NCBI GenBank assembly: GCA_963823665.1 | Contig: CAWGMQ010000005.1 | Location: 1,152,001 to 1,216,000 of the forward strand | Length of the DNA: 64,000 nucleotides | Source of the DNA: an uncultured Planctomycetota bacterium | Lineage (GTDB): Bacteria; Planctomycetota; Planctomycetia; Isosphaerales; Isosphaeraceae | Direction: 5' to 3' | Part shown: in pieces, positions 45,992-64,000 of the stretch | How positions within the stretch are numbered: position 1 is the first letter of the stretch | How the letters are laid out: the number at the start of each line of letters is the position of its first letter | Notes under the pieces: model-generated | Told to the model about the DNA's origin: nothing | Databases searched by the model: none | The model's input: the letters and a program-made list of their open reading frames with translations, nothing else | Translations under genes and position numbers: made by a program

Positions 45992-46690
45992 ATGTCCGGT
46001 GCGAAGGGCGTCAAGCCGCGGCCCGGCCGTTTGCTCATGGGCTTGCCGCCCGACACGCGTGTTGTCATCGCCGACGTCACGTGGAACGACTACGCGCGGC
46101 TCGTGGATGCGGTCGCCGAGGGCGAGAACTGCCGCGTCGCCTATGACGGGAAGGATGTCGAACTCATGAACGTCGGCCCCGTTCACGATTCGTACAGTGA
46201 GATCCTGGGGTTATTCGTTAACCTGGTTGCCGAAGAGCTCCAGATCGATCTGAGAGGAGCGCGATCGACGACGTGGAGGCGCAGGAAATTGAATCGGGGA
46301 ATCGAGGCCGATCTATCGTACTTCGTTGACGCCGCGAAAGTGGCTGCTTTTGATGCTGCGCTCGCGAGGCGGTCTGGGAAAATCAAAGATTACCCCAATC
46401 CGGACCTGGCTGCTGAAGTCGATATCTCACGTCCGAAGATTGATCGCCAGGGGATCTATGCTGCGCTTCAGGTCTCCGAGGTCTGGCGTGTTTTCGAGGA
46501 GCACGTGTCGATCGAGCAACTCCAATCTGACGGGAAGTACCTGGCGGCTGTCAGCAGCCGGTTCCTCCGTGTCACGCCTGACGACGTGGAGCGCTGGGTC
46601 TTGCGCGAAGGTGCCCGAGGTAGTGTGACGTGGAAGCAACGATTGCGCGAATGGGTACGGAATGAGCTCCGTTCCAGGACGGCCCTGTAG
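45992..46690 (+). CDS. Uma2 family (PD-(D/E)XK) endonuclease-like protein
   Basis: DVTWNDY, RVAYDG, GIEADLSY, PDLAAEVD, IYAALQVSEVW; aaggag RBS. Confidence 0.85.
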   Translation: MSGAKGVKPRPGRLLMGLPPDTRVVIADVTWNDYARLVDAVAEGENCRVAYDGKDVELMNVGPVHDSYSEILGLFVNLVAEELQIDLRGARSTTWRRRKLNRGIEADLSYFVDAAKVAAFDAALARRSGKIKDYPNPDLAAEVDISRPKIDRQGIYAALQVSEVWRVFEEHVSIEQLQSDGKYLAAVSSRFLRVTPDDVERWVLREGARGSVTWKQRLREWVRNELRSRTAL

Positions 46691-46703
46691 GGCTTGTTCT
46701 CCT

Positions 46704-46967
46704 TTATGCTTCCTCGTCTTCCTTGATTGCTCGGTCGATCTCTTCAGCGTGCGTCCGGTAATAGGACCAAGCGACCGTCAAGTCGGCCTCGGTCAAGTCC
46801 GGGTGGTGTTCTCGGATCTGCGCATCGGACAACCCCAGCCGGCGCCACGCAACGAGACCCGCGACCGTGTGCCGCGTATTTCGAATGCATGGCTCGCCAC
46901 CACACACCTCGGAAGCCGATTGAATCCAGCTTTCTGTGCTAACCGGAGTCGGTTACATCGTGTTCAT
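46704..46967 (-). pseudogene. DUF433 protein with an early in-frame stop
   Basis: ggag-ATG AAC ACG ATG TAA...EVCGGEPCIRNTR...EEIDRAI. Confidence 0.65.
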
Positions 46968-47063
46968 GACTCCAACGACAGGGAGAATGAGTCGCTCTCG
47001 CTCGAGCGGCGGCAAGAGGCCCTACTGCAAAGTATCGCCGTCACGAGCGTGATGTCAAACAGG

Positions 47064-49367
47064 CTACGCCCGGTCCTGGCTCGCAACAGCCCTGGACTCG
47101 ACCCGAAGATGGCACCACCGCCTCCACATTTCACGGTAAGCGGCTTCGACCGATCGGGCGAAGCGCGGCGCATCCGAGAGTGGAGAGGCCTGCAAACGAT
47201 CTCGAAGGGTCGCACGAAGCGCACCGAGACGCGGCACATCGCCGGCCAGGGCGACCGCGATGCTCACGAATTGGTCCGATGTCTCGGCAACCAGTTCCGG
47301 CAGACCGACGTTGGTTAACAAAGAGAGTCCCGCTCGTGCGACTGGCGTATCGCCCACGAGAGTGACGACCGGAACGCCTTGCCAGAATCCGTCGAGGCTG
47401 GTGGTGTGTCCGTTATACGGGAAGGTGTCGAGGCCGATGTCGATGCGATGGTAGAGCTCCAGATACCGCGGGCGAGGCTGCCTGGGGACGAAGGTCACCC
47501 TATCGCGGCTTATGCCTTCCCGTTCCAGCAAATCCAAGGTACGCCGGCGCACCGAGCCCCCAGGGGCCAGGAGCAACAGCCGCGAGCCGTCGACGGCCGT
47601 GAGGACCTGAGCCCAAAGCTTCAGGACCGAATCATTCACCTTGCAGAAGTTGTTGAGGCAGCCGAACGTGATGCAGCCGTTCTCCACCGCTGGCAAGGCG
47701 CTGACCGCCGGTTCCCCGGCGAGCGGATCGTAGCACCAGAAGGCGTCGGGAAGGCGGATCGATTCCTCCGAGTAGTCCTGATCGTGAAGCCCCGGAGGAT
47801 CGATGAAGGGGTCAGTGAGGCGGTAGTCAATGGTCGAAAGGCCGGTGGTGCCTGGATAGGCAAGCCAGCAGACTTGAACAGGCGCCGGCTTGCGGGCGAA
47901 GACCAGCAGACGATTCCCGGCCATGTGCATACCAAGGTCGACGAGAATGTCGATCCCGTCCTGGCGGACGAGCGCGGCGACCTGCTCGTCGGAAAGACCG
48001 GCGATGCTCCGCCAGACATCGGCAAGAGAACGGAGCCGCGCGGTGATCTCGTCAGGACGAGCGACATCTGCATAGCAGTATATCTCGAAGTTCTCGTGAT
48101 CATGTACGGAGAGAAGGGGCACCATGAAGAACGACTGGGCATGGTCGCGAAAGTCCGGCGAAACATAGCCGATTCGCAGCCGGCGCTGGGAAGAGCCGTC
48201 GTTCAAATGCGGTTGAATGACGCGTGCGAGTGGCTCGGCGAACCGCCGGCTCCAATGCCGGTGTTCCTCCAAGATCGCTCGCGCGTCAAAGCCGGAGCAG
48301 AAGATCAGAGTGTAGAGCAGGTTGCTGTGCGCCGTATGAACGTCTGACTCGAGCTCCATGGCCCGCCGGAACGAGGCAACCGCTTCGTTCAAGGCCCCCT
48401 GATCCTTGAGCGCATTGCCCAGGTTGTTGTGCGCCTCCGCGTACGTAGGGTCCCGTCTCAGTGCTTGCCGATACCACGCCACCGCTTCGTCCAGGTTCCC
48501 GCGCTCCTGCCAGAGGAGCCCCAGGTTGTAGTGCGCCAGGGCGTAGTCGGGCTTCAGTTGCAGCGCCCGCTGATAGCATGCCACAGCTTCGTCCAGCTCG
48601 TCTCGATCCTTGTGAGTATTACCGAGGTTGTTGTGCGCCTCCGCGTAGTCGGGCTTCAATCGCAGCGCTCGCTCATAGCATGCCGCGGCTTCGTCCGGCT
48701 TGCCCTGACCCATCAAAACATTACCCAGGTTGTTGTGCGCCTCCGCGTGGTCGGGTTTCAGTTCCAGTGCTCGCTGATAACACGCCGCGGCTTCGTCCGG
48801 CTCGCCCTGACCCATCAAAACATTACCCAGGTTGTTGTGCGCCTCCGTGTAGTCGGGTTTCAGTTCCAGCGCTCGCTGATAACACGCCGCGGCTTCGTCC
48901 GTCTTACCCTGACGCATGAAAACATTACCCAGGTTGTTGTGTGCCTCGGCGTAGCCAGGTTTAAGTTGCAGCGCTCGCTGATAACACGCCACGGCTTGAT
49001 CGAGATCCCCATGGTCGCGCCAGGCGAGCCCCAAGTTGTTGTGCATCTCGGCGTAGTCGGGCTTCAGTTGCACCGCTCGCTGATAACACGCAATGGCCTC
49101 GTCGAGCTTTCCCAGGTCCGTGCAGGCGTTTCCCAGGTTGAAGTGCGCCTCGGCCCAGTCGGGTCTGAGCGCGAGAGCACGCCCGATGCACTCGACTCCG
49201 GCTTGAGTATTGCCGACATGACAAGCGATGAGCCCCAGCAGGTGCCACGCATCCGGGTGAAGAGGGTCAGTGGCAAGAATCTGCCTGTAGATCGCCTCCG
49301 CCTCGCGCAATCGGCCCTCCCGTTGATGCTCAATAGCGATGGCCAGGGCCTCGGCAATCGTAGGCAT
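47064..49367 (-). CDS. TPR-repeat O-GlcNAc transferase-like (GT41/SPINDLY-like) protein
   Basis: About 10 TPRs; RLRIGYVSPDFRDHA, DILVDL, KPAPVQ, LAYPGTTG, FGCLNNFCK, LDTFPYNGHTT; probable start MPTIAEAL. Confidence 0.9.
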   Translation of the reverse strand: MPTIAEALAIAIEHQREGRLREAEAIYRQILATDPLHPDAWHLLGLIACHVGNTQAGVECIGRALALRPDWAEAHFNLGNACTDLGKLDEAIACYQRAVQLKPDYAEMHNNLGLAWRDHGDLDQAVACYQRALQLKPGYAEAHNNLGNVFMRQGKTDEAAACYQRALELKPDYTEAHNNLGNVLMGQGEPDEAAACYQRALELKPDHAEAHNNLGNVLMGQGKPDEAAACYERALRLKPDYAEAHNNLGNTHKDRDELDEAVACYQRALQLKPDYALAHYNLGLLWQERGNLDEAVAWYRQALRRDPTYAEAHNNLGNALKDQGALNEAVASFRRAMELESDVHTAHSNLLYTLIFCSGFDARAILEEHRHWSRRFAEPLARVIQPHLNDGSSQRRLRIGYVSPDFRDHAQSFFMVPLLSVHDHENFEIYCYADVARPDEITARLRSLADVWRSIAGLSDEQVAALVRQDGIDILVDLGMHMAGNRLLVFARKPAPVQVCWLAYPGTTGLSTIDYRLTDPFIDPPGLHDQDYSEESIRLPDAFWCYDPLAGEPAVSALPAVENGCITFGCLNNFCKVNDSVLKLWAQVLTAVDGSRLLLLAPGGSVRRRTLDLLEREGISRDRVTFVPRQPRPRYLELYHRIDIGLDTFPYNGHTTSLDGFWQGVPVVTLVGDTPVARAGLSLLTNVGLPELVAETSDQFVSIAVALAGDVPRLGALRATLRDRLQASPLSDAPRFARSVEAAYREMWRRWCHLRVESRAVASQDRA
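48600..48980 (-). repeat. Near-identical 102-bp tandem TPR units
   Basis: Repeated cccatcaaaacattacccaggttgttgtgcgcctcc block at a 102-bp period. Confidence 0.8.
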
Positions 49368-49713
49368 GGTTACCGTACCACCAATGAAAGCAAGCACATG
49401 GAAAGCAAGAACATGCATTGTATTCCTGACAGACACCCGCGGTTCAGGTACCTTCCGTCGATCGATCACCCAGGGAGTTCCACCCATGACGACGCCCCGC
49501 GAGCATCTCGTCAACCCCATCGAAACTCCGGCGATTCGTACGTGTGCATTACTATATACTAATATAATTTTAAAATTCGTGTATTTTCTTGGTTTCAATC
49601 GATACAATGCAATTCTGAAGGTGAGCCTCGCTACCGTCGACGGCGATTCAGCACCTTGCCGGATCACGGCGGGTGGTGAAAAGCAAACGGCGGCGGCCGC
49701 AAAGGGGTATGCG

Positions 49714-50196
49714 ATGTGGAAACATCACGCGGGACGAATGGACTTCCACGAGCCGCTCTTTCAGCTCCTGGAGCGCGGGTGGCGATTCCAGGAATTCGGC
49801 CCGACCGCCGGCGCTCGGGAGGGTGGTTGCTGGGCCGTAACCGGGTTTCACCGATGGGCGCGGGTGCGGGTCGACCGCCTCGAACGAAGGGATGCGTGGG
49901 CCGCGGCCGTGCGTCTGGCACTGAAGGCCGCCATCAAGCGCAGGCCCTTCCTGACTGCGCCTACCACCGGCACCAGGCGGAGCTCGCCGGACGATCCAAC
50001 GGTCTTTGACGAGGAGCAAATGCGGCTCAGGGCGATGGGATGGTCGTTCTCCGAGCACCAGACGGCCCAGGAGAGTGGCCGGGTGGGATGGGTGGTGAGC
50101 GGAACTCGGCGTGGGCGGAGAATTCGAGCCCTGGACGACGATCGCTCCGACGCGTGGGGTACGGCCCTGATCCTGGCGGGCGTGACGTCCACGTAG
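49714..50196 (+). CDS. Hypothetical protein built from two copies of a ~55-aa Trp-rich domain
   Basis: LLERGWRF..WAVTG..DAWAAAV and LRAMGWSF..WVVSG..DAWGTAL. Confidence 0.55.
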   Translation: MWKHHAGRMDFHEPLFQLLERGWRFQEFGPTAGAREGGCWAVTGFHRWARVRVDRLERRDAWAAAVRLALKAAIKRRPFLTAPTTGTRRSSPDDPTVFDEEQMRLRAMGWSFSEHQTAQESGRVGWVVSGTRRGRRIRALDDDRSDAWGTALILAGVTST

Positions 50197-50246
50197 GCCT
50201 TCCCGTACGTGGATCGATGTCACAGGTAGCGCGAATCGACACCGAG

Positions 50247-51461
50247 CTAGAGATTGGAGGCGGTTTTGACCGCTACGTTAGCACGCTCGCCGGTAGAACC
50301 GACCAGTGTCCTGCGCTCGGTCGACGCAACCTCGACAAAGAGGTCAAGATACTCCCGGCCCACATTTGGCCAGAACATGGGCTTGGCGTAGTCGTAAGCC
50401 TTTCGCTGCGTCTCCAGCCGAAGGGCGGTGTCGCTCAAGTAACGGACTGTCGCATCCGCCAGGGGAGCGCTCTGGGCAAAAGGGACGATCTGGCCCCGAC
50501 CTTCTGCCAGGACTTCCTCGGCATAGAGGTAGGGTGTGCTCACAATGGCCCGTCCGGCCGCCATCGCGTAAGCCAGAGTGCCGCTGGCGATCTGGTCCTT
50601 GCCCGGATAGGGGGTGACGTACACGTCGCACGCTTGCAAGTAGACCATGAGCTCAGACAGCTCGAGATACTGGTTTACAAACCGGACGTGCGCCCCGACA
50701 CCAAGTGCTTCGGCCATCGCGACCAGGCTCTTCCTGTAGATCTCCCCTTCCTGGCGTTTGACCTCGGGGTGGGTCACGCCGACGATGATGTAAATGGCCT
50801 TGGGACACGAGGCCACGATTCGCGGCATGGCCTGGATCATGTATTCCAGCCCCTTACCCCGATTGATCAGTCCGAATGTGCAGATCAGGCGTTCACCCCG
50901 CAATCCGAGCCGCTTCTTGCTGGTCTCACCGCTTTCAAACGCGACTTCGGGTACTCCGTGCGGAATCACGCGCACACGGTCCGTCGGAATCTGATACACG
51001 CCCGCCAGAAGCCGCGCGGTGCGCTTGGTCATGACCACAATGCCTCGGCTTTGGGCCGCTAAACTTCGGATCAGGTGCCTGGGCAAGGGCGCAGGCTCTG
51101 TCATCAACGTGTGAAACGTCGTGATGATGGGCTTGCGGCAAGCGCGCACGAAGTCCAGCACACCCCTTCCCCACTCACCGGGATAAAGACCGAATTCATG
51201 CTGCAAGCTCACGAGGTCGCAAGAGCTTTGATTGGCCATTTGAGCGGCCAATCGGTAGGCATCTTTACCCTGGTTCCCTATGACGTGGACAACTCGAGGG
51301 TCTCGGTAATGACACGCATTGATCTTGTCGATCGCGATCACCGACGACACGCCCCCCGTCGCCGCCTTGTCGACCGCATCGGCTGAATCCTTGGTAAAAG
51401 TGGCGAGCCCACATTCCGCGGGCGGATAGGTCGAAACAAACAGAGGACGTGCAGCCTGCAA
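50247..51461 (-). CDS. Glycosyltransferase family 4
   Basis: [43 protein letters not shown]; ggaggt RBS before TTG. Confidence 0.9.
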
Positions 51462-51592
51462 TCACCACCTCCAGATTTTTTCACTGCTGTCGTCAACGTC
51501 GAAGTCCTACACGCATAAGCCACCCATGCGACGGATTGGCAAAGAGGCTCCCCTCACTCCGACCGGACGTCCGCGGTCCCTTCTTGCGCCAC

Positions 51593-51811
51593 CTATGACG
51601 CGGGATTCCGCAGCGTCCCGTCCGCTCCGTTGCTCTCGTGGATTCGTTCCCAGACCTCGGAGCGATGGACAGGGACAGAGGCGTCAGCCTCGAAGCCCAG
51701 TCGTACGCTCCCATTCTTGATCTCGAGTACGGTCACTTTGAGCATTTGCTTAAAGAGGCCAGACCCACCCACCACGACCGATTCCATACTCTTCCTCGTA
51801 AGGACTAACAT
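51593..51811 (-). CDS. csrA: Carbon storage regulator CsrA/RsmA family RNA-binding protein
   Basis: MLVLTRK..ESVVVG..VTVLEI..VRLGFEA...VHRSEV. Confidence 0.88.
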   Translation of the reverse strand: MLVLTRKSMESVVVGGSGLFKQMLKVTVLEIKNGSVRLGFEADASVPVHRSEVWERIHESNGADGTLRNPAS

Positions 51812-51984
51812 CGTTGTGCTCCTTCCTCATGATCGATCGATCGTTCCACTTCCGCTCCAGGCGTCCGCGGGTATGCCATGCGCAAGCAGAAACACCTGCA
51901 CCATCGCACCCGCCGTGCATACGTTGAATCGGCTTGTTCCATCGGTTCGTCTCGAGTCATCGTGGTCATCCCTCGCCAGCGCAA

Positions 51985-52036
51985 CAAAAAAGCCGGCGTG
52001 GTCAAACACCCAGAGGTGTTCGACCACGCCGGCTTA
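51985..52036 (-). terminator. Intrinsic terminator: 20-bp stem followed by a U tract
   Basis: aagccggcgtggtcgaacac-ctctgg-gtgtttgaccacgccggctt then tttt on the minus strand. Confidence 0.75.
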
Positions 52037-52100
52037 CTCGTCAACGAGCCTCCTGGCAAAGCCAGGTTGCCCTTTACCTAGTCGTCCGGAGACGTCAATT
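51985..52100 (-). ncRNA. Candidate structured RNA (sRNA or attenuator leader) upstream of csrA
   Basis: Four consecutive hairpins: cgtc-UCCG-gacg, cctggc-ttt-gccagg, ctcg-ttga-cgag, and the terminator. Confidence 0.45.
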
Positions 52101-52224
52101 CATCAGATTGATAGGAACTGCCTGCTCGTTTGCACAGGCATGCCAAGCGGGCTCATTGTCCGATACCAGAGCATAAATAGCAAGGGATAAGGTTTTATTG
52201 TTCGTACGATGATGGTCAGATAAC

Positions 52225-52467
52225 TCACGCACAAACCTTGCGTTCAATATACGAGACGATTTTACGCGGCGTCGCCCATTCCTCGCGATCAAGTTCCGCA
52301 GGCGAGATCTCCAGGCCGAACTCCGACGAGAACGCGACGATCAACTCCACCGTCTTGAGTGAATCGAGGATCTGGAGGTCGAACAGACGAACGTCGGGTT
52401 CGTGCCGTACATCCTCGATCTCGGACACGCCGGCAAGTACGTCCAGCACGCGATCAGAAATCGTCAT
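52225..52467 (-). CDS. dltC: D-alanyl carrier protein
   Basis: LFDLQILDSLKTVELIV (phosphopantetheine Ser), ISPAELDREEWATPRKI; operon context. Confidence 0.9.
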   Translation of the reverse strand: MTISDRVLDVLAGVSEIEDVRHEPDVRLFDLQILDSLKTVELIVAFSSEFGLEISPAELDREEWATPRKIVSYIERKVCA

Positions 52468-52554
52468 CGCAAGAAAACCTCCAGAAAGTCGTTCGCCAAT
52501 CCATCAGCAGTGGAGCGGGACCACCGCTCGCAAGGGAAACTTCGCCTGCGGACC

Positions 52555-53922
52555 CTACTCCACCCGGACTGGCAGATCCGGCCGGGCGACCTCCCGCGGC
52601 TGATTCTTGATGCTCGGGACATCACCCCACTCGTGAAGAGGGACAAATCCGGGCGCAGCCACTTCGGTCGCCGGCGAAACGGGGCGCGCCGGCTCCCACG
52701 TGGGACCGATCCTTCCCGAGAAGAGGAGGAAGCCCAGGCACACCAGATGGAACGTGACCAGGGTCCCTGCTGCTCGCCAGAGCGGCCCGTTCCCCCACAC
52801 CCGCCGTGGTTTGTTCCAGCGGGTGAAGAGATCATGCCCCGCCGAGAGCGTTCCGTGGTACAGACCATAAAGCAGGTAATAGGGCTCAATTCCGTGCCAG
52901 AGCCCCATCAGCCCGAAGGTGAGAAAGAAGCCCAGGTACGAGGCCGTGTGCCGGCCGGTGAACCAGCGGCCCTTGGTAGCGGCCAACACAAATCTCATGT
53001 ACACATGATCGCGGAACCAGGTGGAGAGACTGATGTGCCAGCGGTTCCAGAAGTCCTTGATATTGCCGGCCAGGAACGGGCGGTTGAAGTTCTCGGGTGT
53101 GTGAATCCCCAGCAGGTAGCTCGCCCCAACGGCGAAAGCGCTGTAGCCGGCGAAATCGAAGAAGAGGTAGAGACTGTAGCCGTACATGTATGACAAGGTG
53201 CTGAGAATTCCTCCGGGGGCGATCCGGTCGATCCAGTAGCGCTCTATGAGCGCCGCCAGGATGAACTTGTACAGGAAGCCGGTGAAAACGCGATGAACGG
53301 CCCCATCCAGGTCCGTCCAGAACTCCCCGGGGAGCCTGGGGCGCTTCCAGTCCTGACTGAACCGGCGGTAGCGGTCGATGGGGCCCGACGAGATCGCCGG
53401 GAAAAAGAAGAGGAAGGCAAAGAACTGTGTGGCGGGGAGCGAAACGATCGCGCGGTTCCGTATGCCGAAGATCACGTCCAGGCTGCGAAACGTCACGTAC
53501 GAGATCCCCAAGAACCCGACCACGGCGCCTGGGACAGCCAGCGGCAGGAATCGAGCCACGACCAGGGGGAACAAGGTCAACAAGAGCGCCGCGGGGAACG
53601 GCCAGTAGCGCGTCGTGAGCGTCCTCGTCCACAGGAAAGCCTGGGCCACGATCCACTGGAAGATCCCGCAGGCCAGCACCACCCAGATCACCCGGATCTC
53701 CGCCAGCCCGCCGGAGGCCGAAAACCCGCCGGTGGCCCCAGCGCCTTCGGGACTGGTGAGCGGCAGGAGGTGCGCGATCGCCCCGTACTGGACGATCAGC
53801 ATCGCCGCGGTGGCGAGCAAGACCCAGGCGCGCGAGAAGCCGAGCCACCGCCGGATCAGCAAGGTCGGCAGGGCGCTGTAAAGCAGAATGCCGAAATAGA
53901 GGAAATCCGCGTACGGGGTCAT
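52555..53922 (-). CDS. dltB: MBOAT-family D-alanyl transfer protein
   Basis: MTPY, FLGISYVTFRS, SSGPIDRYRRF, FDFAGYS, FWNRWHISLSTWFRD, MGLWHG. Confidence 0.93.
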   Translation of the reverse strand: MTPYADFLYFGILLYSALPTLLIRRWLGFSRAWVLLATAAMLIVQYGAIAHLLPLTSPEGAGATGGFSASGGLAEIRVIWVVLACGIFQWIVAQAFLWTRTLTTRYWPFPAALLLTLFPLVVARFLPLAVPGAVVGFLGISYVTFRSLDVIFGIRNRAIVSLPATQFFAFLFFFPAISSGPIDRYRRFSQDWKRPRLPGEFWTDLDGAVHRVFTGFLYKFILAALIERYWIDRIAPGGILSTLSYMYGYSLYLFFDFAGYSAFAVGASYLLGIHTPENFNRPFLAGNIKDFWNRWHISLSTWFRDHVYMRFVLAATKGRWFTGRHTASYLGFFLTFGLMGLWHGIEPYYLLYGLYHGTLSAGHDLFTRWNKPRRVWGNGPLWRAAGTLVTFHLVCLGFLLFSGRIGPTWEPARPVSPATEVAAPGFVPLHEWGDVPSIKNQPREVARPDLPVRVE

Positions 53923-55377
53923 GTGAGGGCCTCGGCCAACCTCCGTCGGTCTGCCTTACCGTTGGTGTTCATCGGAAAGCTCTCCAGAAACGAGAACCTC
54001 CGCGGGATCATGTACGCGGGCAGACGCTCGATCATCTTGCCTTTCAGCTCGCAGGCCATTTGGAAGTCTGACTGCGAGGGCTTCTCGTTCAGGATCACGA
54101 AGGCGGCGAGGGAATCGACTGCCCCCTGCTTGAGGACGGGTAGGACCACGGCATCGCGCACCCCCGTGAGGGCCCGCAAGTTTGCTTCCACATCCGCCAG
54201 CTCGATGCGGTAACCGTGCAGCTTGATCTGGTTATCGATCCGGCCCTCGAAGAAGAGCATGCCCTCGCGGTAGCGGCCCCAGTCGCCGGTTCGGTACGCC
54301 CGCTGACCGTTCACGTGAAAGAATGCGGTTCTCGTTTAACTCGGGCCGGTTCAGGTAGCCGGGGCTCACGTTGGGGCCGGCAATGATGATCTCCCCTCGC
54401 TCACCCTCCGGCAGCTCGCGCCGCTGCTCGTCCATCACCAGCACGCGGCTGCCCAGCATCGGATAACCGATTGGCAGCGGGGAGTACTTCAGGGCGATCT
54501 CGCGCGTGATCCGGATCGACGTGGTGGCGATGGTCGCCTCCGTGGGGCCGTAGGTGTTCCAGACCTCCGCAGCCGGGAACCGGTCCAGGAGCTGCGATGC
54601 GACTTCCGGGGCGAGCGTCTCGCCGCAAAACAGGAACCGCTTGAGCAAGGGCAGCATGCCCTGGTTGAACGTGGGCTCGACCAGGCACATCTGGGCGAAC
54701 GAAGGGGTCGACACCCAGGCCGTCAATTCAGAAGCAGCCAGGAGCTGATACATTTGCTTCGGGTTCGCCACATCCGCCTTGGTGACGCTCGTCACCGTCC
54801 CCCCCGTCACCAGGGCGGGGTACGTATCCATCAGGGAAACGTCGAACGAGTAGGGAACGACGTTCAGGAAAACCTCCCGCCCCTCCACGAACGCGTGCTC
54901 CGCGAGCATCCACCGCAGAAAACTCTGCAGGCAGCCGTAGGTGATGGGCACCCCTTTGGGCTCCCCGGTGCTGCCGGATGTAAACATGATGTAATAATGA
55001 TCGTCTATTCCGAGCCTGCATTGGGGAGCCTGCCCTCCTCCGGAAGAGAGATCGGCGACTTTCTCAGGCGTCAGGATGAGCGCGGCGCCGCTCGCGGCCG
55101 CGATACGCTCGATCCGCTGCGCGGGTAAGGCGGTGTCCACCGGCACATACGCACGCCCCGATTTGATGGCGCCCAGGTAGGCGATGATCAGTTCCGGCTC
55201 CTTGTGTCCCAGAACGACCACCGGCGCATTTTCCGGCAGCGAGGCGGCCAGATGGGCGGCCAGCGCGTCGGACCGGGAGCGCAATTCCCCATAGCTGAGG
55301 GTACGAGACTCGCTCTTGTAGGCCGGGTGGTCCGGGGTCATCCGGCCCCAGTGATCGATCCGCTCGATGATTTCCAC
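53919..55377 (-). CDS. dltA: D-alanine--carrier protein ligase; single frameshift near 54330
   Basis: FTSGSTGEPKG, YSFDVSLMD, WVSTPSF, FLFCGE, NTYGPTE, AYRTGD, QIKLHGYRIEL, NGKADR. Confidence 0.9.
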
Positions 55378-55387
55378 GAGTGGTCCC

Positions 55388-55564
55388 CTAGAAATTCTGG
55401 TAAATGAATGGGGGGGTGGAGAAGTTCCCTTGACCGTACAGCGCCGCCAGCGCCACCAGGATTCCGAGGTAGTAAATCGTCAGAGCAACGAACCTGAGCC
55501 ATGGTTGCGCCAACCGCTCTCTCCACAGGGCATGACGATTGTGGGCTCGCTCCACAAGATTCAT
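55388..55564 (-). CDS. dltX: DltX small membrane acyl-shuttle protein, 58 aa (not in ORF track)
   Basis: Manual translation: MNLVERAHNRHALWRERLAQPWLRFVALTIYYLGILVALAALYGQGNFSTPPFIYQNF*; ATGA overlap with the dltD stop; one TM and C-terminal FIYxxF. Confidence 0.85.
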   Translation of the reverse strand: MNLVERAHNRHALWRERLAQPWLRFVALTIYYLGILVALAALYGQGNFSTPPFIYQNF

Positions 55565-56874
55565 GGCTTGTCTTCCCTGGAAAATGGGATCGCGTCGTGG
55601 AAAAAACCGTCGAGCACCTGGTCGTAATACAGCAACCCATTGGGAGCGAGGTGCCCCATGGGATCGCGGCAGAACGACCGGTCGGCATCGTGATCGGCGA
55701 AGTCGACGACCGGAACGTGATAGCGGTCACTGATCCCGCGCAGCTTCTCGTAGTAGGCCCGTCGGTGCGTCAATCTGACGCCGCAGTAGTCATACCAGCC
55801 GCCGTGGATCGGCATGCTCAAGAGGAGCGGCCGGGCACCGAATTCGGTCAACTCGCGCAGGAGAAGCTCCAGATCGACCCATTCCTGGCTCCTCTCGAGC
55901 GTGCTCAGAAAATGCTCCTCCGTCCGGGTGTTTTTGAGTCGGAGCGTTTCCTGGCGAATTGTGCCTTTCCACTTTTCGTTCGCCAGCCCGAACTCGTTGT
56001 TGTCGGAATGGCTCCGGTACACTTCGTCGGCCTGCCGGTGCAGCATCGGCCAATCCAAGGGCGCAGCGCTGCGCGGCGAAGTCGGGTACGGGGATTTTAG
56101 TGGATGCGTCCAGAGATAACACACGACGTTCAAGTGATCCTGGTAGCGGAGGATCGCATTGTGCATGATCCCCAAGGGTAAGACGGCGTCATAGCAGGCG
56201 AGGGCCAGGGGAGATCCATCGGCGAGGTTCTCCAGCGCAAACCGAAGCAGCGGACGGTTCGCCACTGTCCTCGGGAACTGGAGCATCCGTCGCGCCGCAT
56301 CCTGCCGGAGCCGAAGGCTCAAGCGGGTATCGAAAACCAGTTCTCCGGCGTGCAAGTCAGAGAAATTACCCGCGTATGCGTCCGGCCGAACCGTGAGCCT
56401 CGAGTAGAACCAGCAGGGCGATAACGAGATCGCCACTTTCCGCCCAGCGAGCGCGGGGCCGACCGAAGCCAGCTTTTGCAGGATGGTCAAGCACGTCGAT
56501 TCCGCTTTGCCAATCGGAAAAATCGTGAACCCTGTCGGGCGATCGTGGAACAAGATGGTCGGATGAAAAGGCCGGGTATACGGCTGCAGCAGGTTCAGCT
56601 CGGAGCTGCCGTAAATCGGCAGCAAGCACGCGGTATCCAGCGCTGCCTGTTGCAAGGCCGTGCCCTGGTTCTTGACCGGGGCGAGATCGCCATCTCGTTC
56701 GATGACTGCCTCGCCCGCCGCGAGTGCCGCGATCGAGCGATATTCCAGAGACCGCGCGTAAAACGCAGATGCCTCCAGCGCGACGACGCCCAGAATCACC
56801 GCGGCGACCGCAGCAGCGAGATGGGGGGTTTGCTCCAGGCGCTCTTTCGGACCGGGCATTGTTGTCTCTCGCAA
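55561..56874 (-). CDS. dltD: DltD (SGNH-like, membrane-anchored)
   Basis: N-terminal TM, PIYGSSEL, FHP, ISLSPCWF, GNFS, PIHGGWYDY, DPMGHL; start may be ATG 56859. Confidence 0.9.
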   Translation of the reverse strand: MRETTMPGPKERLEQTPHLAAAVAAVILGVVALEASAFYARSLEYRSIAALAAGEAVIERDGDLAPVKNQGTALQQAALDTACLLPIYGSSELNLLQPYTRPFHPTILFHDRPTGFTIFPIGKAESTCLTILQKLASVGPALAGRKVAISLSPCWFYSRLTVRPDAYAGNFSDLHAGELVFDTRLSLRLRQDAARRMLQFPRTVANRPLLRFALENLADGSPLALACYDAVLPLGIMHNAILRYQDHLNVVCYLWTHPLKSPYPTSPRSAAPLDWPMLHRQADEVYRSHSDNNEFGLANEKWKGTIRQETLRLKNTRTEEHFLSTLERSQEWVDLELLLRELTEFGARPLLLSMPIHGGWYDYCGVRLTHRRAYYEKLRGISDRYHVPVVDFADHDADRSFCRDPMGHLAPNGLLYYDQVLDGFFHDAIPFSREDKP

Positions 56875-57577
56875 CCGTCCTCGGGATTTCTGGAATCGCC
56901 TCCCGTCGCGGTGATATCAAGTTGGATCGCCGGCTGCTTCGACCGGGGAGGGGCGACCGAGCGTTTGGCCCCGGCCCACCCCACGAATTCCGGAGACGTG
57001 GCGCGAGCCCGGCCGATCGATGCGCGCACTGTGTGAATACGACGCCCCTCCCTGTTTGTCGGATTCGGCGTCCCCACGAGTTCAGACTTTGTGACAGCCC
57101 TCGCCCGTCCTCGATCGGAGGACGTCCTGGCGGAGAGGATAGGCCTTCGCGATGCACAGGCTATGCTTACCGTCGTCAAAGTCAACCCCGATTTGCTGAC
57201 CCGGCCCGGCCGAGTGCCAGCCCAGCCACGGTTGGGCTTGGTGGCCGACAAACGCGCCTGAAGGGTCGCAATCGAAAACGCCCTCACCGGGGCTATCTGG
57301 AACTGCTTGTCCCGGCACGGATTTCATTACAGCCGGAACGCCTTGACTGAAAGCAAAGCTGTCGCTACCAACGTTCGTCTGGATTCTGCGAACACGTCGC
57401 TGTTTTCATTTCTTAACGGTTGACCGGATAAAAGGTTAAGCTTTGTGCGCACGCCCGCATTCTGGGGGTTTTCGCTCATGCAGTTAGAGTTTGACGGCCG
57501 AGCTTATCGTTGGGTGCGCCTGGAAGAATGCTGACGCACGACCCGCCCTCGACAAAAGCGACGAGAAGAGGACAAGC

Positions 57578-58780
57578 ATGATGCGTCTCTTCGCGCCACG
57601 GCAGCATTCATGCCCATCGTCCGGGCCCCGGATCGGTCCAGCCCGGTCGGCCGCGCGGCCGGGTCGGCGAGCACGATGGCGGGCGCGGCCCGAGGCCGAG
57701 CCGCTCGATTCGCGTCTGCTCATGGCGTCGCCCGATCTGTCCGCGCGCGTTGCGCAGGTCTTGCAGCCGTACCTCGATCAAGGCCGGATCCCCGGCATCT
57801 CGGTGGCGATCGTCACGGACGGGCAGGTCGCCCTGACGCAAGGATACGGGATCAGCAACGTGAAGACCCATGCGCCCGTCGAGGCCAATACCCGGTTCGA
57901 CATCGGTTCGGTGACGAAAACGTTTACCGCCATCGGAGTGCTGCTCCTCTACCAGGAGAGCCAGGGCACGTCCGACCCACTTGATCTCAACGCCCCGATC
58001 AGTGAATATCTGAAAAATACTCGATCATTCAAGCTGCCGCGCAAGTGGGCCGGTGTCACCACGATGGAGCTGCTCAACATGACCAGCGGCATCGGGAATG
58101 CGTCAGACACCCAGCCCTGGCAGGCGCAAGTCGCGTCGGTCGGGAAGAACCCTCTGCTCTTCGCGCCTGGGACAAAGACTTTCTATAGCGACACGGGCTT
58201 CGACCTGCTCGGCGAGCTCATCGAGCAGCGGTCCGGGGAAAAGTACAGCACCTTCGTACAGAACCAGATCCTTGCACCGCTGGGGATGTCCGCAACCCAG
58301 GAGCTGGGCCTGTCCCCCACGGTGCCGAACCAGGCGGTCGGCTACAACGCGCGCAGCCACGGGACCTGGCCCAAGGCCAAGATCGAGAACGGACCCGAAA
58401 TGTACGCCGCCGCCGGGATGATCTCGACTGCCCAGGACATGGCCACCTACATGACGGCGCTCTTGAGCGGTCAGTTCCTCGATCCGGCGACCTATAACTT
58501 GATGTGGACCTCGACACCGACGCCGCAGTACGGCGTGAATCCCCCCTCCGACACGGTACGCGGCCTGGGATGGGATACGGCGATCGACACGAGCGCGGGG
58601 CCCACCATGGTCGCAAAGGGCGGGTCGGTACCCGGATTCGTCTCCGAGATCATCCTGTACCCGAACACGGACAGCGGAGTGTTCGTCTCCATCAACACCA
58701 ATCCTTCTGGCAGTCGGGGTGCGAGCCCCCTCAGCGCCTTGCAGGTCGCGAAGGCGGTGTACGCGGCGACCCAAGATTAG
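57578..58780 (+). CDS. Secreted beta-lactamase-fold serine hydrolase with LEPRxLL-type N-terminus
   Basis: AEPLDSRLLMA; IPGISVAIV, FDIGSVTKTF (SxxK), LLNMTSGI, FYSD, KGGSVPGF. Confidence 0.85.
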   Translation: MMRLFAPRQHSCPSSGPRIGPARSAARPGRRARWRARPEAEPLDSRLLMASPDLSARVAQVLQPYLDQGRIPGISVAIVTDGQVALTQGYGISNVKTHAPVEANTRFDIGSVTKTFTAIGVLLLYQESQGTSDPLDLNAPISEYLKNTRSFKLPRKWAGVTTMELLNMTSGIGNASDTQPWQAQVASVGKNPLLFAPGTKTFYSDTGFDLLGELIEQRSGEKYSTFVQNQILAPLGMSATQELGLSPTVPNQAVGYNARSHGTWPKAKIENGPEMYAAAGMISTAQDMATYMTALLSGQFLDPATYNLMWTSTPTPQYGVNPPSDTVRGLGWDTAIDTSAGPTMVAKGGSVPGFVSEIILYPNTDSGVFVSINTNPSGSRGASPLSALQVAKAVYAATQD

Positions 58781-58894
58781 TTGACCTCTTGCCCCGCATC
58801 CGATTATGATCGGACATCTGTCGTACACGCCCCATGGCGACTGCACACCGCGCGATATCCGCATGCCAGATACAGTCTCATCCGGAGGATCACG

Positions 58895-61045
58895 ATGCGC
58901 CGCCCCCGTCCGGCTCTGACCGCCCTGCTCCTGATCGCTGGAGCCTGCCACGCCAACATCCCCGCAGGTCGCGCCGACGCCGAGCCGGCGAGCTTCGACG
59001 GAGAAGCAACGATCTCCGGGAAGATCGTCGACGCATCGGCGGCTCCCATTGCGGGGGCACAAGTAACACTCTATCGCCTTGAATCGCTCAACTCTCGCTG
59101 GGGGCGGTTCAAGGTCGAGCGCGCCGCCGCGGCGGCCGATGGGGCTGGAACGTACAAGTTCGCGGGTCTGGGAGACGGTTACTTCATGCTGTCCGTCGAA
59201 AGCGCCGGATTCCCTCGAACATTCCATGCTGCGAGCATCCAGGGCCATGCGTCACAAATGGTCGACATCGTGCTCAAACCGCCGGTATCGCTCGTCATTC
59301 GTGTCGAAGATCAGGACGGCAAGCCGGTTGCCGGAGCGCGTGTCCGGGAGATGACCCAGCGTGGGGCCAACGGAGAGTGCAGTTTCCGGCAACTCTGGAT
59401 GCGCTCGCTCGCCGTCTCGATCCCCACCAGCGACGAGCAGGGATGCTTGCGGCTGCCGCCACTTCCCTCCGGGGACATCATCAAAGCCACCATCGAACAT
59501 CCGAGACTCGCGCCGGTCAGGACGGGCGACCTGACGGCCGCCCCAGGCGCCACGGCCACGGTGAAGATGCAGCCCGGCGTCACGGTCACGCTGCACATCC
59601 CGGTCGATCCGCCGGCCGTGCGGATCGCCAGTGCAGTCGTGGACCTGCGGCACGAGCCTTTCGACGACCCGTCGACGATCATCTACTACGAAGTGGACTT
59701 TGATTCCAAGGGTTTGGCTCAACTCACCGTCGCGCCGGGCGAATACTCGTGGCTTCTGCTGCAGCATGAGAACTTCTTCTTGACCCCGGTGTATTCCGCG
59801 AATCATCAGAAGAAGAACTGGCTGCGCATCGAGCCCGGGCGGAACCGGGACCTGCACATCGACGTTCACCGGAAGGTATCGGCTCGAGGCCGGGTGGTCG
59901 ATGCCGACACGGGAAAGCCCCGGTACAGAATGTCGGTGATGGGCGAGCTTGCCCACCGAACTCCGCCGGGATGGGCCGATCCGCCGCCGGATACATGGAG
60001 CTTCGCCGGATGGGGTGAAACCGATGTGCAGGGGCGATACAGCATCGACCTTGCCGCCGGGCTCGGCCGCGTCTCCTTTCAGGGAAGCGCGTTCGTGGCG
60101 GAACAGGATTATTATGAAGTTTCCGTCGCCGACGACGGTTCAACCGTCATCCCGGATATCAAGATTCGTTCTCTGCAGAAGATCACAGGTGTTGTGCAGA
60201 ATCCCGACGGCACTCCCGCCCCCCGCGCCGTCGTTCGACTCCGCGGAAAGTACCTGACGGGGCTCCAGCCGGTATTGACCAACGACTCCGGTCGATTCGA
60301 GGTTCGCCCTGAATGGATTCCGGTCGACCCGGACACGGGAAAGCACGCCTACCTCCAGCACGTGGTCGCCTTCGATCCGTACCGCCCCCTGGCAGCCCGA
60401 GCCGAGGTACGGCTCGACCAGCCGAGTAAGGTCGTACTCAAGCTCGAGCCGCACGGCCCAGACTGGCCGCTGGCGGAATTCCAGTCCGAGCTCTCCGAGT
60501 GGGAGCGCGGCATCGTGCCGGCCGCCAGAACTGCCAAGGACGCAGCCGTCTCGATGCGCGGCATCAACCCACCCGAGATCGACAGTGTTTTATGGCTGAA
60601 TACCAATGACAAGACCCTGAGCCTCGCCGACCTGCGCGGCAAGTACGTTTTGCTGGATTTCTGGTTCGTCGGCTGTGGCCCCTGCCACGGTGATTTTCCG
60701 TCGGTCAAGCTGGTCCATGAGTTGTACAAGGACAGGGGCGTTGTGGTCATCGGTGTCCATAACAATTCCAGTCCGCCGGAGGCTGTCCGGAAACACGTCG
60801 CGGAGATCGGTTTGCCCTTTCCTGTGGCCGTCGACCATCCCGACGGCCGAACGATTGCCCGTTTCGAAAAACACGGCGTTCCCTCCGGCTACCCGGATTA
60901 CGTCCTGATCTCACCCGAGGGGAAAGTCCTGCTCGATGATCGCACCATTCCGCATCCGACCTTGCGTTCATACAAGCTGGAGATCATCCGGAAGTTCCTT
61001 CTCGAAGCGCGGGCGACTTTGGGGAAAGTTCAATCGGGCCTTTGA
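58895..61045 (+). CDS. Secreted protein with carboxypeptidase-regulatory-like domains and a C-terminal TlpA/redoxin domain
   Basis: Signal peptide; ISGKIVD..PIAGAQV repeats; LRGKYVLLDFWFVGCGPC; ggagg RBS. Confidence 0.88.
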   Translation: MRRPRPALTALLLIAGACHANIPAGRADAEPASFDGEATISGKIVDASAAPIAGAQVTLYRLESLNSRWGRFKVERAAAAADGAGTYKFAGLGDGYFMLSVESAGFPRTFHAASIQGHASQMVDIVLKPPVSLVIRVEDQDGKPVAGARVREMTQRGANGECSFRQLWMRSLAVSIPTSDEQGCLRLPPLPSGDIIKATIEHPRLAPVRTGDLTAAPGATATVKMQPGVTVTLHIPVDPPAVRIASAVVDLRHEPFDDPSTIIYYEVDFDSKGLAQLTVAPGEYSWLLLQHENFFLTPVYSANHQKKNWLRIEPGRNRDLHIDVHRKVSARGRVVDADTGKPRYRMSVMGELAHRTPPGWADPPPDTWSFAGWGETDVQGRYSIDLAAGLGRVSFQGSAFVAEQDYYEVSVADDGSTVIPDIKIRSLQKITGVVQNPDGTPAPRAVVRLRGKYLTGLQPVLTNDSGRFEVRPEWIPVDPDTGKHAYLQHVVAFDPYRPLAARAEVRLDQPSKVVLKLEPHGPDWPLAEFQSELSEWERGIVPAARTAKDAAVSMRGINPPEIDSVLWLNTNDKTLSLADLRGKYVLLDFWFVGCGPCHGDFPSVKLVHELYKDRGVVVIGVHNNSSPPEAVRKHVAEIGLPFPVAVDHPDGRTIARFEKHGVPSGYPDYVLISPEGKVLLDDRTIPHPTLRSYKLEIIRKFLLEARATLGKVQSGL

Positions 61046-61748
61046 GTGCCGCTGGAAACACGCCCCAGGTCACCTCGTACGAGGCTTCGAGCGGGCACGG
61101 GACGTAATGATCTGGCGTGAGGAAGATCGGCATGTCCGGAAGCCGCTCGCCGACGGCCACGTTTTCGACGTAGGCGACTTTCTCCGAACCTGCGGCATAC
61201 GCCGCGAGGGTCAACGGTTTGGCCGGCGGCAGTTCGAACGGCTCGTCCTTGAACTGGTCCCAGATCAACTTGTGGATGCCGTGCGGGTCGCGGGCTGACG
61301 GCGGAAAGAGATCGACGACCAGCAGGTGGACGCCGCGGCGGAGCAGTTTCCCGGCCTTGCGAACGAACGCCTTGAGCCCGTTCATGTTGTCCTTGTTCCC
61401 GCGCGACAGGATCTCGATGACCGCAATCAACTCCCCCTGCGGCAGGTAAACGGACAAATGGTCAGCCCGCCTCGCGTACCCGGCGGTGTTCTCCCCGCGG
61501 GTCACGACGCGGGTGCGGGGGGGGCTGTCGAGCACGGCGAGCCCTGGTGGACCGTTCGGGGGCATCGGCGGCTGGGCCTTGAGCGCGAGCACGTCCGGGA
61601 TTGGCCCTTTCGCATCCACCTCGCTCATGGCGAAATAACCCTCGGGCAACCCTCCGGAGTTGAGCCCATCGGCGAGAGCGGAAATCCATCGCTGGTGGAA
61701 GAAGTGGTACGTCCCGGCCGGAACGCAGGTCCAATCGTGAATCGGCAT
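60984..61748 (-). CDS. DUF4058 family protein
   Basis: MPIHDW...FHQRWI, PDVL, IAVIEILSRGNK, HLLVVDLFPP, LPDMPIFL. Confidence 0.8.
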   Translation of the reverse strand: MPIHDWTCVPAGTYHFFHQRWISALADGLNSGGLPEGYFAMSEVDAKGPIPDVLALKAQPPMPPNGPPGLAVLDSPPRTRVVTRGENTAGYARRADHLSVYLPQGELIAVIEILSRGNKDNMNGLKAFVRKAGKLLRRGVHLLVVDLFPPSARDPHGIHKLIWDQFKDEPFELPPAKPLTLAAYAAGSEKVAYVENVAVGERLPDMPIFLTPDHYVPCPLEASYEVTWGVFPAALKGPIELSPKSPALREGTSG

Positions 61749-61949
61749 GGCGAACCTCCCGCCGATATTGTACCAGATGGACGTTGGTTCTTCTTCTACG
61801 GCAAGAGCCACGCGGCCGTGCGAAGATCGAGACTTCGCTCCGATCGATTCCGGCGCTCGATCGGGAGCGCTGGGTGGTCGAACGGACTCTCTCGGATTAC
61901 TCTCGAACCTGACCGACATAGCCGGCCAGGATGCGAGGGAGCCCTTGTC

Positions 61950-63083
61950 ATGAGTCAAGCTGGAGTGCAGGAAGACCGGATCGTCGCGGCCTTCGAGCGT
62001 GCGGTGCCGAGCCGGGTCCTGTTGCTCGTCGTGGGGCTTTGCTGCGCCCTGCTGGGCGTGGTGGCGATCTGGCTGCCGCAGTCGCTGTTCGGGACGCTCG
62101 TGTGGATCGTCGGTGCGCTCTTGCTCGGCTCGGGTGTGATCAAGCTGCTGCTCCTGTTGCCGGGGCGGCGCTCACGCGCGGCGAGACGGCAGTCGTGGGC
62201 GATGATCCTGGTCCAATCCGGGCTGGACATCGCGATGGGGCTTATCCTTTTCAATCACGGACAGATCTCCGCGCGGGTGGTGGCGGCGGTGTTCGGGCTT
62301 CTGTTCCTGATTGAGGGCGGAGTCCTGTTCTGCATGGGCGCGAAGTCAACGAGTTTCCGTGGTCGGCTCATGCTGTGGATCACGGCGGCGGTCACTGGTG
62401 GAATCGGCCTGGCGGTCGTGTTCGCTCTCGTGCCTGATCCCATCCGTTGGGCAGGTGTGATCGTCGGGCTGAAGCTGCTCTGCTTCGGGCTCACCCTGGT
62501 GATCATCGCACTGACCGCCCGCGAGGATGCCGCCGCGCTGCTGCTGGCGACCCAGGTGCCCGAGCCGGTGACCGGCGAGCTGTATTCCGTGTACTTCGGC
62601 ACGGCGTTCCACCTGGGTGTATATGTCGGAGACGGCAAGATCGTCCATTTCCTGAACGACAATCATGTGTACCACGTGAGCTGGGAACTGTTCCTGGAAG
62701 GAAGGATGCCGCAGCACTGGACCTATCCCGACTTGCCTGTGGTACCGGTGGAGGAGATTGTGCGCACCGCGCTCTCGGAAGTTGGCAATACATACACTTA
62801 TAAACTGTTGACGTTCAACTGTGAGCACTTCGCGATCCACTGCAAGTCGGGCGGGCAGGTGAAAACAAGCCAGTACGCACAAGTGCCCTCGAGCCTCGAA
62901 AGCGTGCGGAAACATCCCTGGCGAGGCATAGTGGCCGAGCTGAATACGCGGCTCGTAGAATGGCTGGCATTCCACCTGGGCGGTCCAGCCGGCAGACAGC
63001 TCTCGTTGACGATTCGGAGGCTCGGCTCAACCGTAACCTTGTGGCTGATGCATCCGGAAAAGGTGTCAGGAACCAATGATTGA
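61950..63083 (+). CDS. DUF308/HdeD-like 6-TM domain fused to an LRAT-like (permuted NlpC/P60) domain
   Basis: Six hydrophobic helices, then FHLGVYVGDGKIVHF...YTYKLLTFNCEHFA. Confidence 0.8.
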   Translation: MSQAGVQEDRIVAAFERAVPSRVLLLVVGLCCALLGVVAIWLPQSLFGTLVWIVGALLLGSGVIKLLLLLPGRRSRAARRQSWAMILVQSGLDIAMGLILFNHGQISARVVAAVFGLLFLIEGGVLFCMGAKSTSFRGRLMLWITAAVTGGIGLAVVFALVPDPIRWAGVIVGLKLLCFGLTLVIIALTAREDAAALLLATQVPEPVTGELYSVYFGTAFHLGVYVGDGKIVHFLNDNHVYHVSWELFLEGRMPQHWTYPDLPVVPVEEIVRTALSEVGNTYTYKLLTFNCEHFAIHCKSGGQVKTSQYAQVPSSLESVRKHPWRGIVAELNTRLVEWLAFHLGGPAGRQLSLTIRRLGSTVTLWLMHPEKVSGTND

Positions 63084-63103
63084 CTCGTTCCGGTGGGGCG
63101 GTT

Positions 63104-64000
63104 TCAGCGATCACGCAGCGCCGCCAGCACTTCATTCGCGACCCGTTCGCCCGATCGCACGGCCCCGTCCATGTAACCACACCAGGCTTCCGAGGTCTCG
63201 GACCCCGCCCAGTGAATGCGCCCGACGGGCACGCGCAAGGCCGGGCCGAACCGCGTCAGGACGTTGCGCGGTACGGGGGAAACACACCCGGTCGTCCACC
63301 CATCGCTCGACCAGTCGGTCTCGAAATAGGCCACCGGCTCCTTCGCTCGTTTGCCGAACAGGCTCGCCAGCCCGGCGAGCACGGCCGTTCGGCGCTTGCC
63401 GGGGTCTTTGTTCACGCCATCGTCGGTCAGGAACGCGACCAGAACGCCGCGAGATCCATCCTGTGGCGAGTTGTCGAACGTCACGCCGATCGGCGGTCGG
63501 TCGGCCACGCCGATGCCGCTGAGACCGTCCTTCCTCCAGAAGGGTTCGTCATAAACAACATTGACCTTGATCGCCGGTTGACCTCGCCATGCGTCAACCA
63601 GCCCACGTCGCTGCGCCGGCAACGCAGGCAAGAACGCAATCCGACGCGTGTCTGCCGGCATCATCGCCACGACCACGCGCCGCGCTCGAACCTTGAGCCG
63701 TGTCGATTCGACAGCGACCCCCGATTTCTCTTCATCAACGATCCGGAGCACGGGGGAGCCGACCACGAGCTGATCGCCGAGCGGTGCCGCGAGCGCCTTC
63801 GAGAGCGACTGCGGTCCGCCAACAAACCGGTATTCCTGCGCGTCGATATCGAGGGCGTGGATGCTTCCCGCGGCCCGGATGAAGAAGAGGTAGTAGAGTA
63901 GCGAAATCCGCGAGGCTGGCCCCAGCTCGGTCGACAGGTTGATGTCGAACGTCTGCTTCGTCTCTTCGTCGCGCGTGTTCGCTGCCAGCCACTGTTGGAC
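63104..64000 (-). CDS. Flavin monoamine oxidase family protein, 5' end outside the window
   Basis: YDEPFWR..GLSG, DWSSDGWTTGC, GRIHWAGSETS, GYMDGAVRSGERVA. Confidence 0.88.
   Translation of the reverse strand, partial: VQQWLAANTRDEETKQTFDINLSTELGPASRISLLYYLFFIRAAGSIHALDIDAQEYRFVGGPQSLSKALAAPLGDQLVVGSPVLRIVDEEKSGVAVESTRLKVRARRVVVAMMPADTRRIAFLPALPAQRRGLVDAWRGQPAIKVNVVYDEPFWRKDGLSGIGVADRPPIGVTFDNSPQDGSRGVLVAFLTDDGVNKDPGKRRTAVLAGLASLFGKRAKEPVAYFETDWSSDGWTTGCVSPVPRNVLTRFGPALRVPVGRIHWAGSETSEAWCGYMDGAVRSGERVANEVLAALRDR

Follow-up and report, generated by a model that had tools for sequence, protein, structure and literature searches.

A dlt cassette of soil Isosphaeraceae, apparently spread laterally, probably D-alanylates a non-teichoic envelope molecule

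The sequence analysed here, a stretch of 64,000 nucleotides from an uncultured Planctomycetota bacterium (contig CAWGMQ010000005.1, positions 1,152,001 to 1,216,000; hereafter the window), carries a complete set of dlt genes, the genes of the D-alanylation system of Bacillota. Our data suggest that these genes, together with the neighbouring gene of a serine hydrolase, constitute a six-gene cassette, which would have been passed laterally among large-genome soil Isosphaeraceae and would esterify D-alanine onto an envelope molecule that is not a teichoic acid. The best joint reading of the evidence, which we consider rather probable, is that D-Ala is placed on an envelope glycan or glycolipid other than a teichoic acid, and that a DltE-like esterase edits this modification. 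The five dlt genes follow each other on the minus strand in the order dltD-dltX-dltA-dltB-dltC, and the features of the cassette are the following:

55561..56859, minus strand: dltD, 432 aa; periplasmic domain of SGNH type behind a single N-terminal membrane helix; ATG start; predicted catalytic triad Ser86, Asp399, His403 (DxxxH)
55388..55564, minus strand: dltX, membrane microprotein of 58 aa; C-terminal acyl-shuttle motif FIYQNF (Tyr55)
53919..55377, minus strand: dltA, D-alanine:carrier-protein ligase; split over two frames in this assembly by an additional base near 54331
52555..53922, minus strand: dltB, membrane-bound O-acyltransferase; His296/His343
52225..52467, minus strand: dltC, D-alanyl carrier protein; Ser36
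57158..57187, minus strand: conserved promoter-like site GGTTGA...TAGCCT, inferred from its pattern, about 330 nt upstream of dltD
57578..58780, plus strand: divergent S12 serine hydrolase of beta-lactamase fold, about 400 aa; SVTK / YS / KGG motifs; PF00144

The original prediction of a complete dltD-X-A-B-C operon was confirmed: the five genes are co-oriented, and four of the products score above the curated cut-offs, namely DltD (192.9 against 150, TIGR04092), DltB (400.7 against 375, TIGR04091), DltC (80.3 against 68, NF003464; 76.4 against 52.35, TIGR01688) and DltX (38.1 against 25, PF12459). The two pieces of dltA reach 397.7 and 146.2 on NF003417, whose cut-off of 476 applies to the whole protein, and the intact DltA orthologue of a relative passes both DltA models (569.7 against 476 for NF003417, and 559.9 against 559.85). 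Both ATGA overlaps are present, at 55561-55564 (dltD/dltX) and 53919-53922 (dltA/dltB). The 5' limit had been placed at 56874, which is a TTG five codons upstream of the dltD ATG at 56859, and the notion of a five-gene unit holds for the dlt genes themselves, but the common unit is longer, extending to about 58773, and has the divergent hydrolase gene as its sixth member.

The catalytic residues that had been read from the window are kept, with one correction. Ser36 of DltC stands in the DSL motif, and His296 and His343 of DltB align with His289 and His336 of the S. thermophilus protein (PDB 6BUG match, E 2.7e-67). The pocket of the DltA adenylation domain matches that of D-Ala-specific DltA: the residues corresponding to D197, C269, T297 and K492 of the B. 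cereus enzyme are kept in 26 of 26 DltA sequences and in the window pieces, and the pocket cysteine is the residue associated with D-selectivity. DltA is 47-48% identical to the B. cereus and Listeria enzymes; in DltX, F53, Y55, Q56 and F58 are invariant in all 20 aligned sequences, and two phosphopantetheinyl transferases are encoded in the genome. The AlphaFold model of DltD has a pLDDT of 94.7, and the 10 Foldseek matches listed at E<=0.001 were all DltD chains. Its GSSE motif is as described earlier, whereas the supposed D..H is in fact D-P-M-G-H (DxxxH), with one residue more than the DxxH found in Bacilli.

The aspartate stands four residues ahead of the histidine in 118 of 129 clade sequences, as compared to DxxH in 6 of 6 Bacilli; Ser86 and His403 are invariant in all 129. 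The glutamine of the SPQW motif, present in 6 of 6 Bacilli, occurs in 6 of the 129 clade members, and the window DltD has SPCW instead; in a docking model of L. plantarum DltD, described in the accessible part of PMC13653941, this glutamine contacts the glycerol-phosphate chain. Of the trees proposed earlier for the Dlt proteins those of DltD and DltA were built, as quick versions, and in both of them the clade stands apart from Bacilli with an SH-aLRT of 100. The DltD tree left out three rows with stops and represented Bacillota by six Bacilli and one protein labelled Symbiobacteriaceae, and neither tree held Clostridia or Dickeya/Bordetella-type sequences. The clade also has members from Chthoniobacterales, and source labels within it include Chloroflexi, Anaerolineae, Symbiobacteriaceae, Gemmatimonadota and Rudaea. 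Judged by its sequence, the window DltD is a member of a separate soil clade, which has the DxxxH motif and usually lacks the glutamine linked to teichoic-acid binding. Of 80 metagenome loci, most of them short, 47 showed dltA, 46 dltX, 44 dltC and 35 dltB, and the genes were arranged in many different ways. The suggested likeness of the dltD-first order to Clostridioides difficile is thus not informative, because gene order varies freely in the clade and the closest relatives belong to other soil lineages.

In the relay described in the accessible text of PMC12148441, D-Ala passes from DltA through DltC, DltB, DltX (with its FxYxxF motif) and DltD to the acceptor. From family membership and the conserved residues we infer a similar path for the cassette: DltA would adenylate D-Ala and load it onto DltC, DltB would carry it through the inner membrane and hand it to DltX at Tyr55, and DltD would take it on Ser86 and pass it to an acceptor hydroxyl at the periplasmic face. 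The hydrolase would remove or recycle the D-Ala esters, while D-Ala itself most likely comes from a D-amino-acid transaminase whose substrates would be pyruvate and D-amino acids obtained by scavenging, or else is taken up directly. As a result, the surface would carry less negative charge and the cells would tolerate cationic peptides.

The planctomycete host proposed by the original prediction is borne out by the 23 nearest loci (DltD 55-87% identical), which bear the titles Isosphaeraceae, Isosphaerales, Planctomycetaceae or Planctomycetota. Altogether 56 loci were collected from genome contigs, the rest being 28 titled Verrucomicrobiota, with Chthoniobacter flavus among them, and 5 others. 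The proposed survey of Planctomycetota found DltD above the cut-off in 22 of 121 genomes of the family (presumably Isosphaeraceae), all of them at least 8.3 Mb in size, and no DltB above the cut-off in 400 other Planctomycetota; 300 other Verrucomicrobiota gave no DltD match, although D-X-A-B is present in one locus titled Planctomycetaceae (L035). Carriers are patchy within genera (5 of 14 in genus g17). When 20 kb of the window (44001-64000) was compared with the 23 close loci, nucleotide similarity was confined to 52222-58782 and stopped sharply in every case. Between genera, the amino-acid identity of dltD (0.74) is like that of a dat-like transaminase gene (0.72), which served as the single control, but the identity at fourfold sites is 0.69 for dltD against 0.45 for the control, with dltD higher in 92 of 93 pairs; the pairs are dependent and come from 15 of the 21 carriers besides the window genome. 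The dltD tree also divides genus g17, which the control-gene tree keeps whole. The high fourfold-site identity and the division of g17 point to lateral movement of the ~6.5-kb cassette between genera after their divergence.

The product of the sixth gene matches a family of beta-lactamase fold, it has SxxK and a catalytic-type tyrosine, and among PDB entries it matches an alkaline D-peptidase best (4Y7P, E 6e-27). The gene is linked to dlt in 20 of the 23 close loci, and the linkage survives gene reordering in two loci (L020 and L027). An orthologue of at least 62% identity is present in 20 of 22 dltD-positive and 0 of 99 dltD-negative genomes of the family, the best matches in the latter being 35-38%; since kin genomes are not independent, this co-occurrence is a pattern and not a test. 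These features make the protein a candidate DltE/FmtA-like D-Ala esterase or D-peptidase and, by analogy, it most likely edits, removes or recycles D-Ala esters, as DltE and FmtA do. The accessible parts of PMC10241514 and PMC13653941 describe L. plantarum DltE as a beta-lactamase-fold D-Ala esterase, encoded with dlt, that binds DltD and DltX. The protein of the cassette resembles this enzyme and S. aureus FmtA in being a serine hydrolase of that fold tied to dlt, and differs from them in the divergent transcription of its gene and in its planctomycete-type N-terminal motif and lack of a hydrophobic membrane segment. A natural fusion of DltD with a PF00144 domain, known from Lactobacillus, also favours a tie of such hydrolases to Dlt. 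Its N-terminus consists of an Arg-rich stretch and then ExLDxRLL, with similar N-termini in 4 of 6 other window proteins checked, and the motif is of the kind found in the window's large extracellular-type proteins. We take it to be akin to the planctomycete export motif (LEPRxLL); an NCBIfam scan of the hydrolase N-termini gave no export-motif family, and the motif rests on a pattern match.

Several facts speak against the proposed role of the hydrolase. Its gene is missing from 2 of the 22 carriers and was found in none of the 80 mostly short metagenome loci, no hydrophobic membrane segment is present, and the protein is only 22% identical to the PF00144 domain that is fused to DltD in a protein encoded on a Lactobacillus plasmid (L. 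helsingborgensis). The last two of these facts, together with the divergent transcription and the planctomycete-type N-terminus, indicate that the hydrolase was probably recruited independently. Its fold model (pLDDT 41 from 16 sequences) was too poor for use, and the predicted complex with DltX, which scored 0.00, was not used as evidence.

The suggestion that the acceptor differs from known teichoic acids agrees with the searches: TagF was found in none of the 121 family genomes, and an LtaS search at E<=1e-8, which scored only nine candidates per genome, gave 18 weak partial matches among the 121 genomes but not one in the 22 carriers. Since neither protein was found in the carriers, the acceptor is probably not a classical teichoic acid. 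By elimination, the most likely acceptor is a lipid-linked surface glycan or a glycolipid, such as a lipopolysaccharide core or O-chain or an intermediate of repeat-unit assembly, because it has to be accessible on the periplasmic side of the inner membrane; LpxC is present in the window genome. Less favourable to this view are the small number of candidates in the LtaS search and the 80 metagenome loci, where no common acceptor gene was seen and none is conserved by the cassette across the wider clade. Resistance to cationic peptides, as also suggested before, may be supposed by analogy to Dickeya and Bacillota, and charge neutralisation may be supposed by analogy too.

Alternatively, the acceptor might be a phosphodiester polymer or substituent resembling teichoic acid, and its maker a sulfatase-fold protein that is anchored in the membrane and has Thr at the nucleophile position (WTLPSH). 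Such a protein is encoded within 10 kb, on either side, in 17 of the 23 close loci, and copies of at least 71% identity occur only beside dlt. Its membrane helices and alkaline-phosphatase-superfamily domain with Thr are the layout of LtaS and EptA. However, the family is present in 101 of 121 genomes irrespective of dlt, the window cassette has no adjoining gene of this type (the best copy in the genome is on another contig, 46-54% identical), and three of three sulfatase-fold proteins gave no LtaS or OpgB match at E<=0.001, their best matches being sulfatases. A separate search for OpgB, run without a positive control, was negative in 5 of 5 genomes. Thus we consider a phosphodiester acceptor unlikely. 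Two small genes without Pfam matches precede the sulfatase-fold gene: one for a membrane peptide of 72-87 aa (8 loci; L021:5271-5498) and one for a protein of about 124 aa (5 loci; L028:7905-8276).

The frame of dltA deserves separate consideration, as near 54331 the window sequence is one base longer than that of its relatives. The read check proposed for this site was possible in part: the extra base is in the assembly, and contigs of relatives, which are other strains, lack it in two soil runs (depth 7.3 of 7.3 in X1 and 24.9 of 26.9 in X5), two further runs (X2 and X3) giving no cover. If the frameshift were genuine, Dlt would work in the relatives and the copy of the window strain would be a pseudogene. 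The presence of the base in the assembly fits this idea, and so does the fact that same-strain reads do not cover the break, which also counts against an active cassette in this strain. Nevertheless, scattered breaks in dltD, dltA or dltB affect 10 of 18 loci from long-contig assemblies, against none of the 5 others (of these, three span only part of the operon), one of the ten lying near the window dltA site in the opposite direction. Further single-gene breaks occur in the dat-like, pabC-like and sulfatase-like genes of the same genome, and the remaining five genes of the cassette are intact. A pseudogene is therefore quite unlikely, and an assembly error is the likeliest origin of the extra base.

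The source of D-Ala is a further point, because the cells may make little of it. In the search proposed earlier, alanine racemase was found in none of the 121 genomes at E<=1e-12, with 9 of 14 controls positive. A ddl-like gene is present in 30 of 121 family genomes, but in 1 of 22 carriers, below the cut-off, and Mur-ligase matches in the window genome are confined to MurE-like and FolC-like proteins. The MurE-like protein stands alone (G000:C5:1867598-1868068, locus L107), with no other Mur ligase, Ddl or Alr found. According to a 2025 review (PMC12673574), most planctomycetes have lost alr, part of the class has also lost most of its mur genes, and some Isosphaerales have lost ddl; the alr and mur losses raise the question of what wall the Isosphaerales have. 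A relay that carries another small amino acid, such as glycine, D-serine or L-alanine, would fit the racemase, ddl and Mur-ligase results. However, the DltA pocket is unchanged, including the cysteine, a dat-like gene is present, and alr occurs in 3 of 5 other tested carriers of the wider DltD clade, including C. flavus, so that another amino acid is improbable. The likely source of D-Ala is the dat-like protein, whose best family is D-amino-acid transaminase and whose gene has no stops in 15 of 15 carriers fetched; in the window genome it is in three pieces. Two results tell against D-Ala from this route: the dat-like proteins score 254-265 bits against a cut-off of 320 (5 tested), and no Asp/Glu racemase was above the cut-off in the window genome.

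Firmicute DNA placed on a planctomycete contig by misassembly or misbinning is conceivable in a metagenome-assembled genome with 3.5% contamination (16.46 Mb in 12 contigs, 91.9% complete), but its probability is negligible: it is refuted by recurrence across independent assemblies, with dltD in 22 of 121 family genomes and often within contigs of more than 0.5 Mb, and the separation of the clade from Bacilli in both trees also speaks against it. The continuity check proposed earlier likewise makes a chimera very unlikely, because the contig is 1.97 Mb long, the operon has a host-like GC content (0.622 against 0.630 for the window), and dltD adjoins the hydrolase gene in a second genome of the same genus (G001).

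The cassette shares with Dlt of Bacillota its five components, the DltX FxYxxF motif, the DltB histidines, the DltA pocket and the DltD fold. In contrast, the host is diderm, TagF, LtaS and alr were not found, the order is D-X-A-B-C, and the window DltD is 22-30% identical to those of Bacilli, from which it also differs by DxxxH, by the usual lack of the SPQW glutamine and by its separate clade. Dlt in diderms is already known from Dickeya, and the planctomycete cassette is a variant. The dra locus of Bordetella likewise holds Dlt genes in a diderm, with a part in resistance to cationic peptides, and those hosts, including the Dickeya-type ones, make normal peptidoglycan, in which they differ from the host of the cassette. 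For Dickeya, Pectobacterium and Photorhabdus, the accessible parts of PMC3544676 and PMC5541007 give dlt a role with cationic peptides and name no acceptor; the former ties Dickeya dltB to polymyxin resistance, naming no substrate, and the latter quotes a Dickeya dltD mutant as being as resistant as the wild type. Our search of the open literature found no report of dlt in planctomycetes or Verrucomicrobiota, although subscription papers or supplements may list them. A laterally spreading Dlt cassette predicts an envelope component decorated with D-amino acids, which would be traceable by a D-Ala label, and the cultured and harmless clade member Chthoniobacter flavus Ellin428 makes the acceptor question accessible to testing. 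It is possible, though doubtful, that planctomycetes without a canonical D-Ala/peptidoglycan pathway scavenge D-amino acids from wall debris by means of the exported hydrolase and the transaminase, and build an undescribed D-alanylated envelope polymer that is the substrate of the DxxxH DltD clade in several phyla.

Chthoniobacterales show further variation of the dlt genes. Their DltB carries at its C-terminus an unnamed domain of some 100 aa (GWAWD...G.G.HGF; L037:13195-14715, L041:13174-14712 and L042:14412-15887), and the same domain is found in one to three copies at the C-terminus of DltD in other relatives (P0122, P0126, P0138, P0157 and P0173), while P0180 and P0248 have a concanavalin-A-like domain (PF13385) in its place. 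An atlas search with the GWAWD domain returned clusters without names and a single Ig-like lead (0.88); both kinds of fused domain may be acceptor-binding modules. In Chthoniobacterales an operon or genome often holds two or three paralogues of dltD, and some of these lack the catalytic Asp (L056:7336-11197, L042, L043, L045, L046, L049 and G536, with three places in C. flavus), and this multiplicity suggests several acceptors. The dltA of C. flavus (L038:11716-13572) encodes 619 aa, of which roughly 130 are an in-frame insertion that follows residue 107. Locus L042 is titled Candidatus Dormiibacterota, its neighbourhood matches the Verrucomicrobiota loci L045 and L046, and it is possibly misbinned.

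The promoter-like pattern upstream of dltD was found in 14 of 21 such regions; a sigma-70 scan did not list the site at 57158..57187. A structured leader RNA at this place was rejected, the consensus energy being -19.7 against -19.2 +/- 4.1 for shuffled sequences and the leader identity (0.715) being on par with that at silent sites (0.738), and an Rfam search of window positions 49000-60000 gave 0 matches. A tRNA-island model was not adopted either: a tRNA-Leu(TAA) follows dltC in only 3 of 22 loci, neither the window nor the other loci showed any remnant of a tRNA, and no integrase family recurs among the neighbours. The three tRNA genes are:

L011:14864-14950: tRNA-Leu(TAA) directly after dltC
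L014:15188-15272: tRNA-Leu(TAA) directly after dltC
L021:14818-14902: tRNA-Leu(TAA) directly after dltC

Downstream of dltC the window has, all on the minus strand, a csrA-like gene (51593-51811), a GT4 glycosyltransferase gene (50247-51461) and a gene of a TPR-GT41 protein (47064-49367), which are not common to the 23 related loci. A hairpin of 20 pairs with a T run (51990-52088, minus strand) lies 190 nt beyond dltC; it has no Rfam match and is probably a dispersed repeat, because many short soil contigs match there with loose ends. Farther on, at 42144-45293 (minus strand), the window encodes a protein of some 1,049 aa that bears IPT/TIG repeats in tandem.

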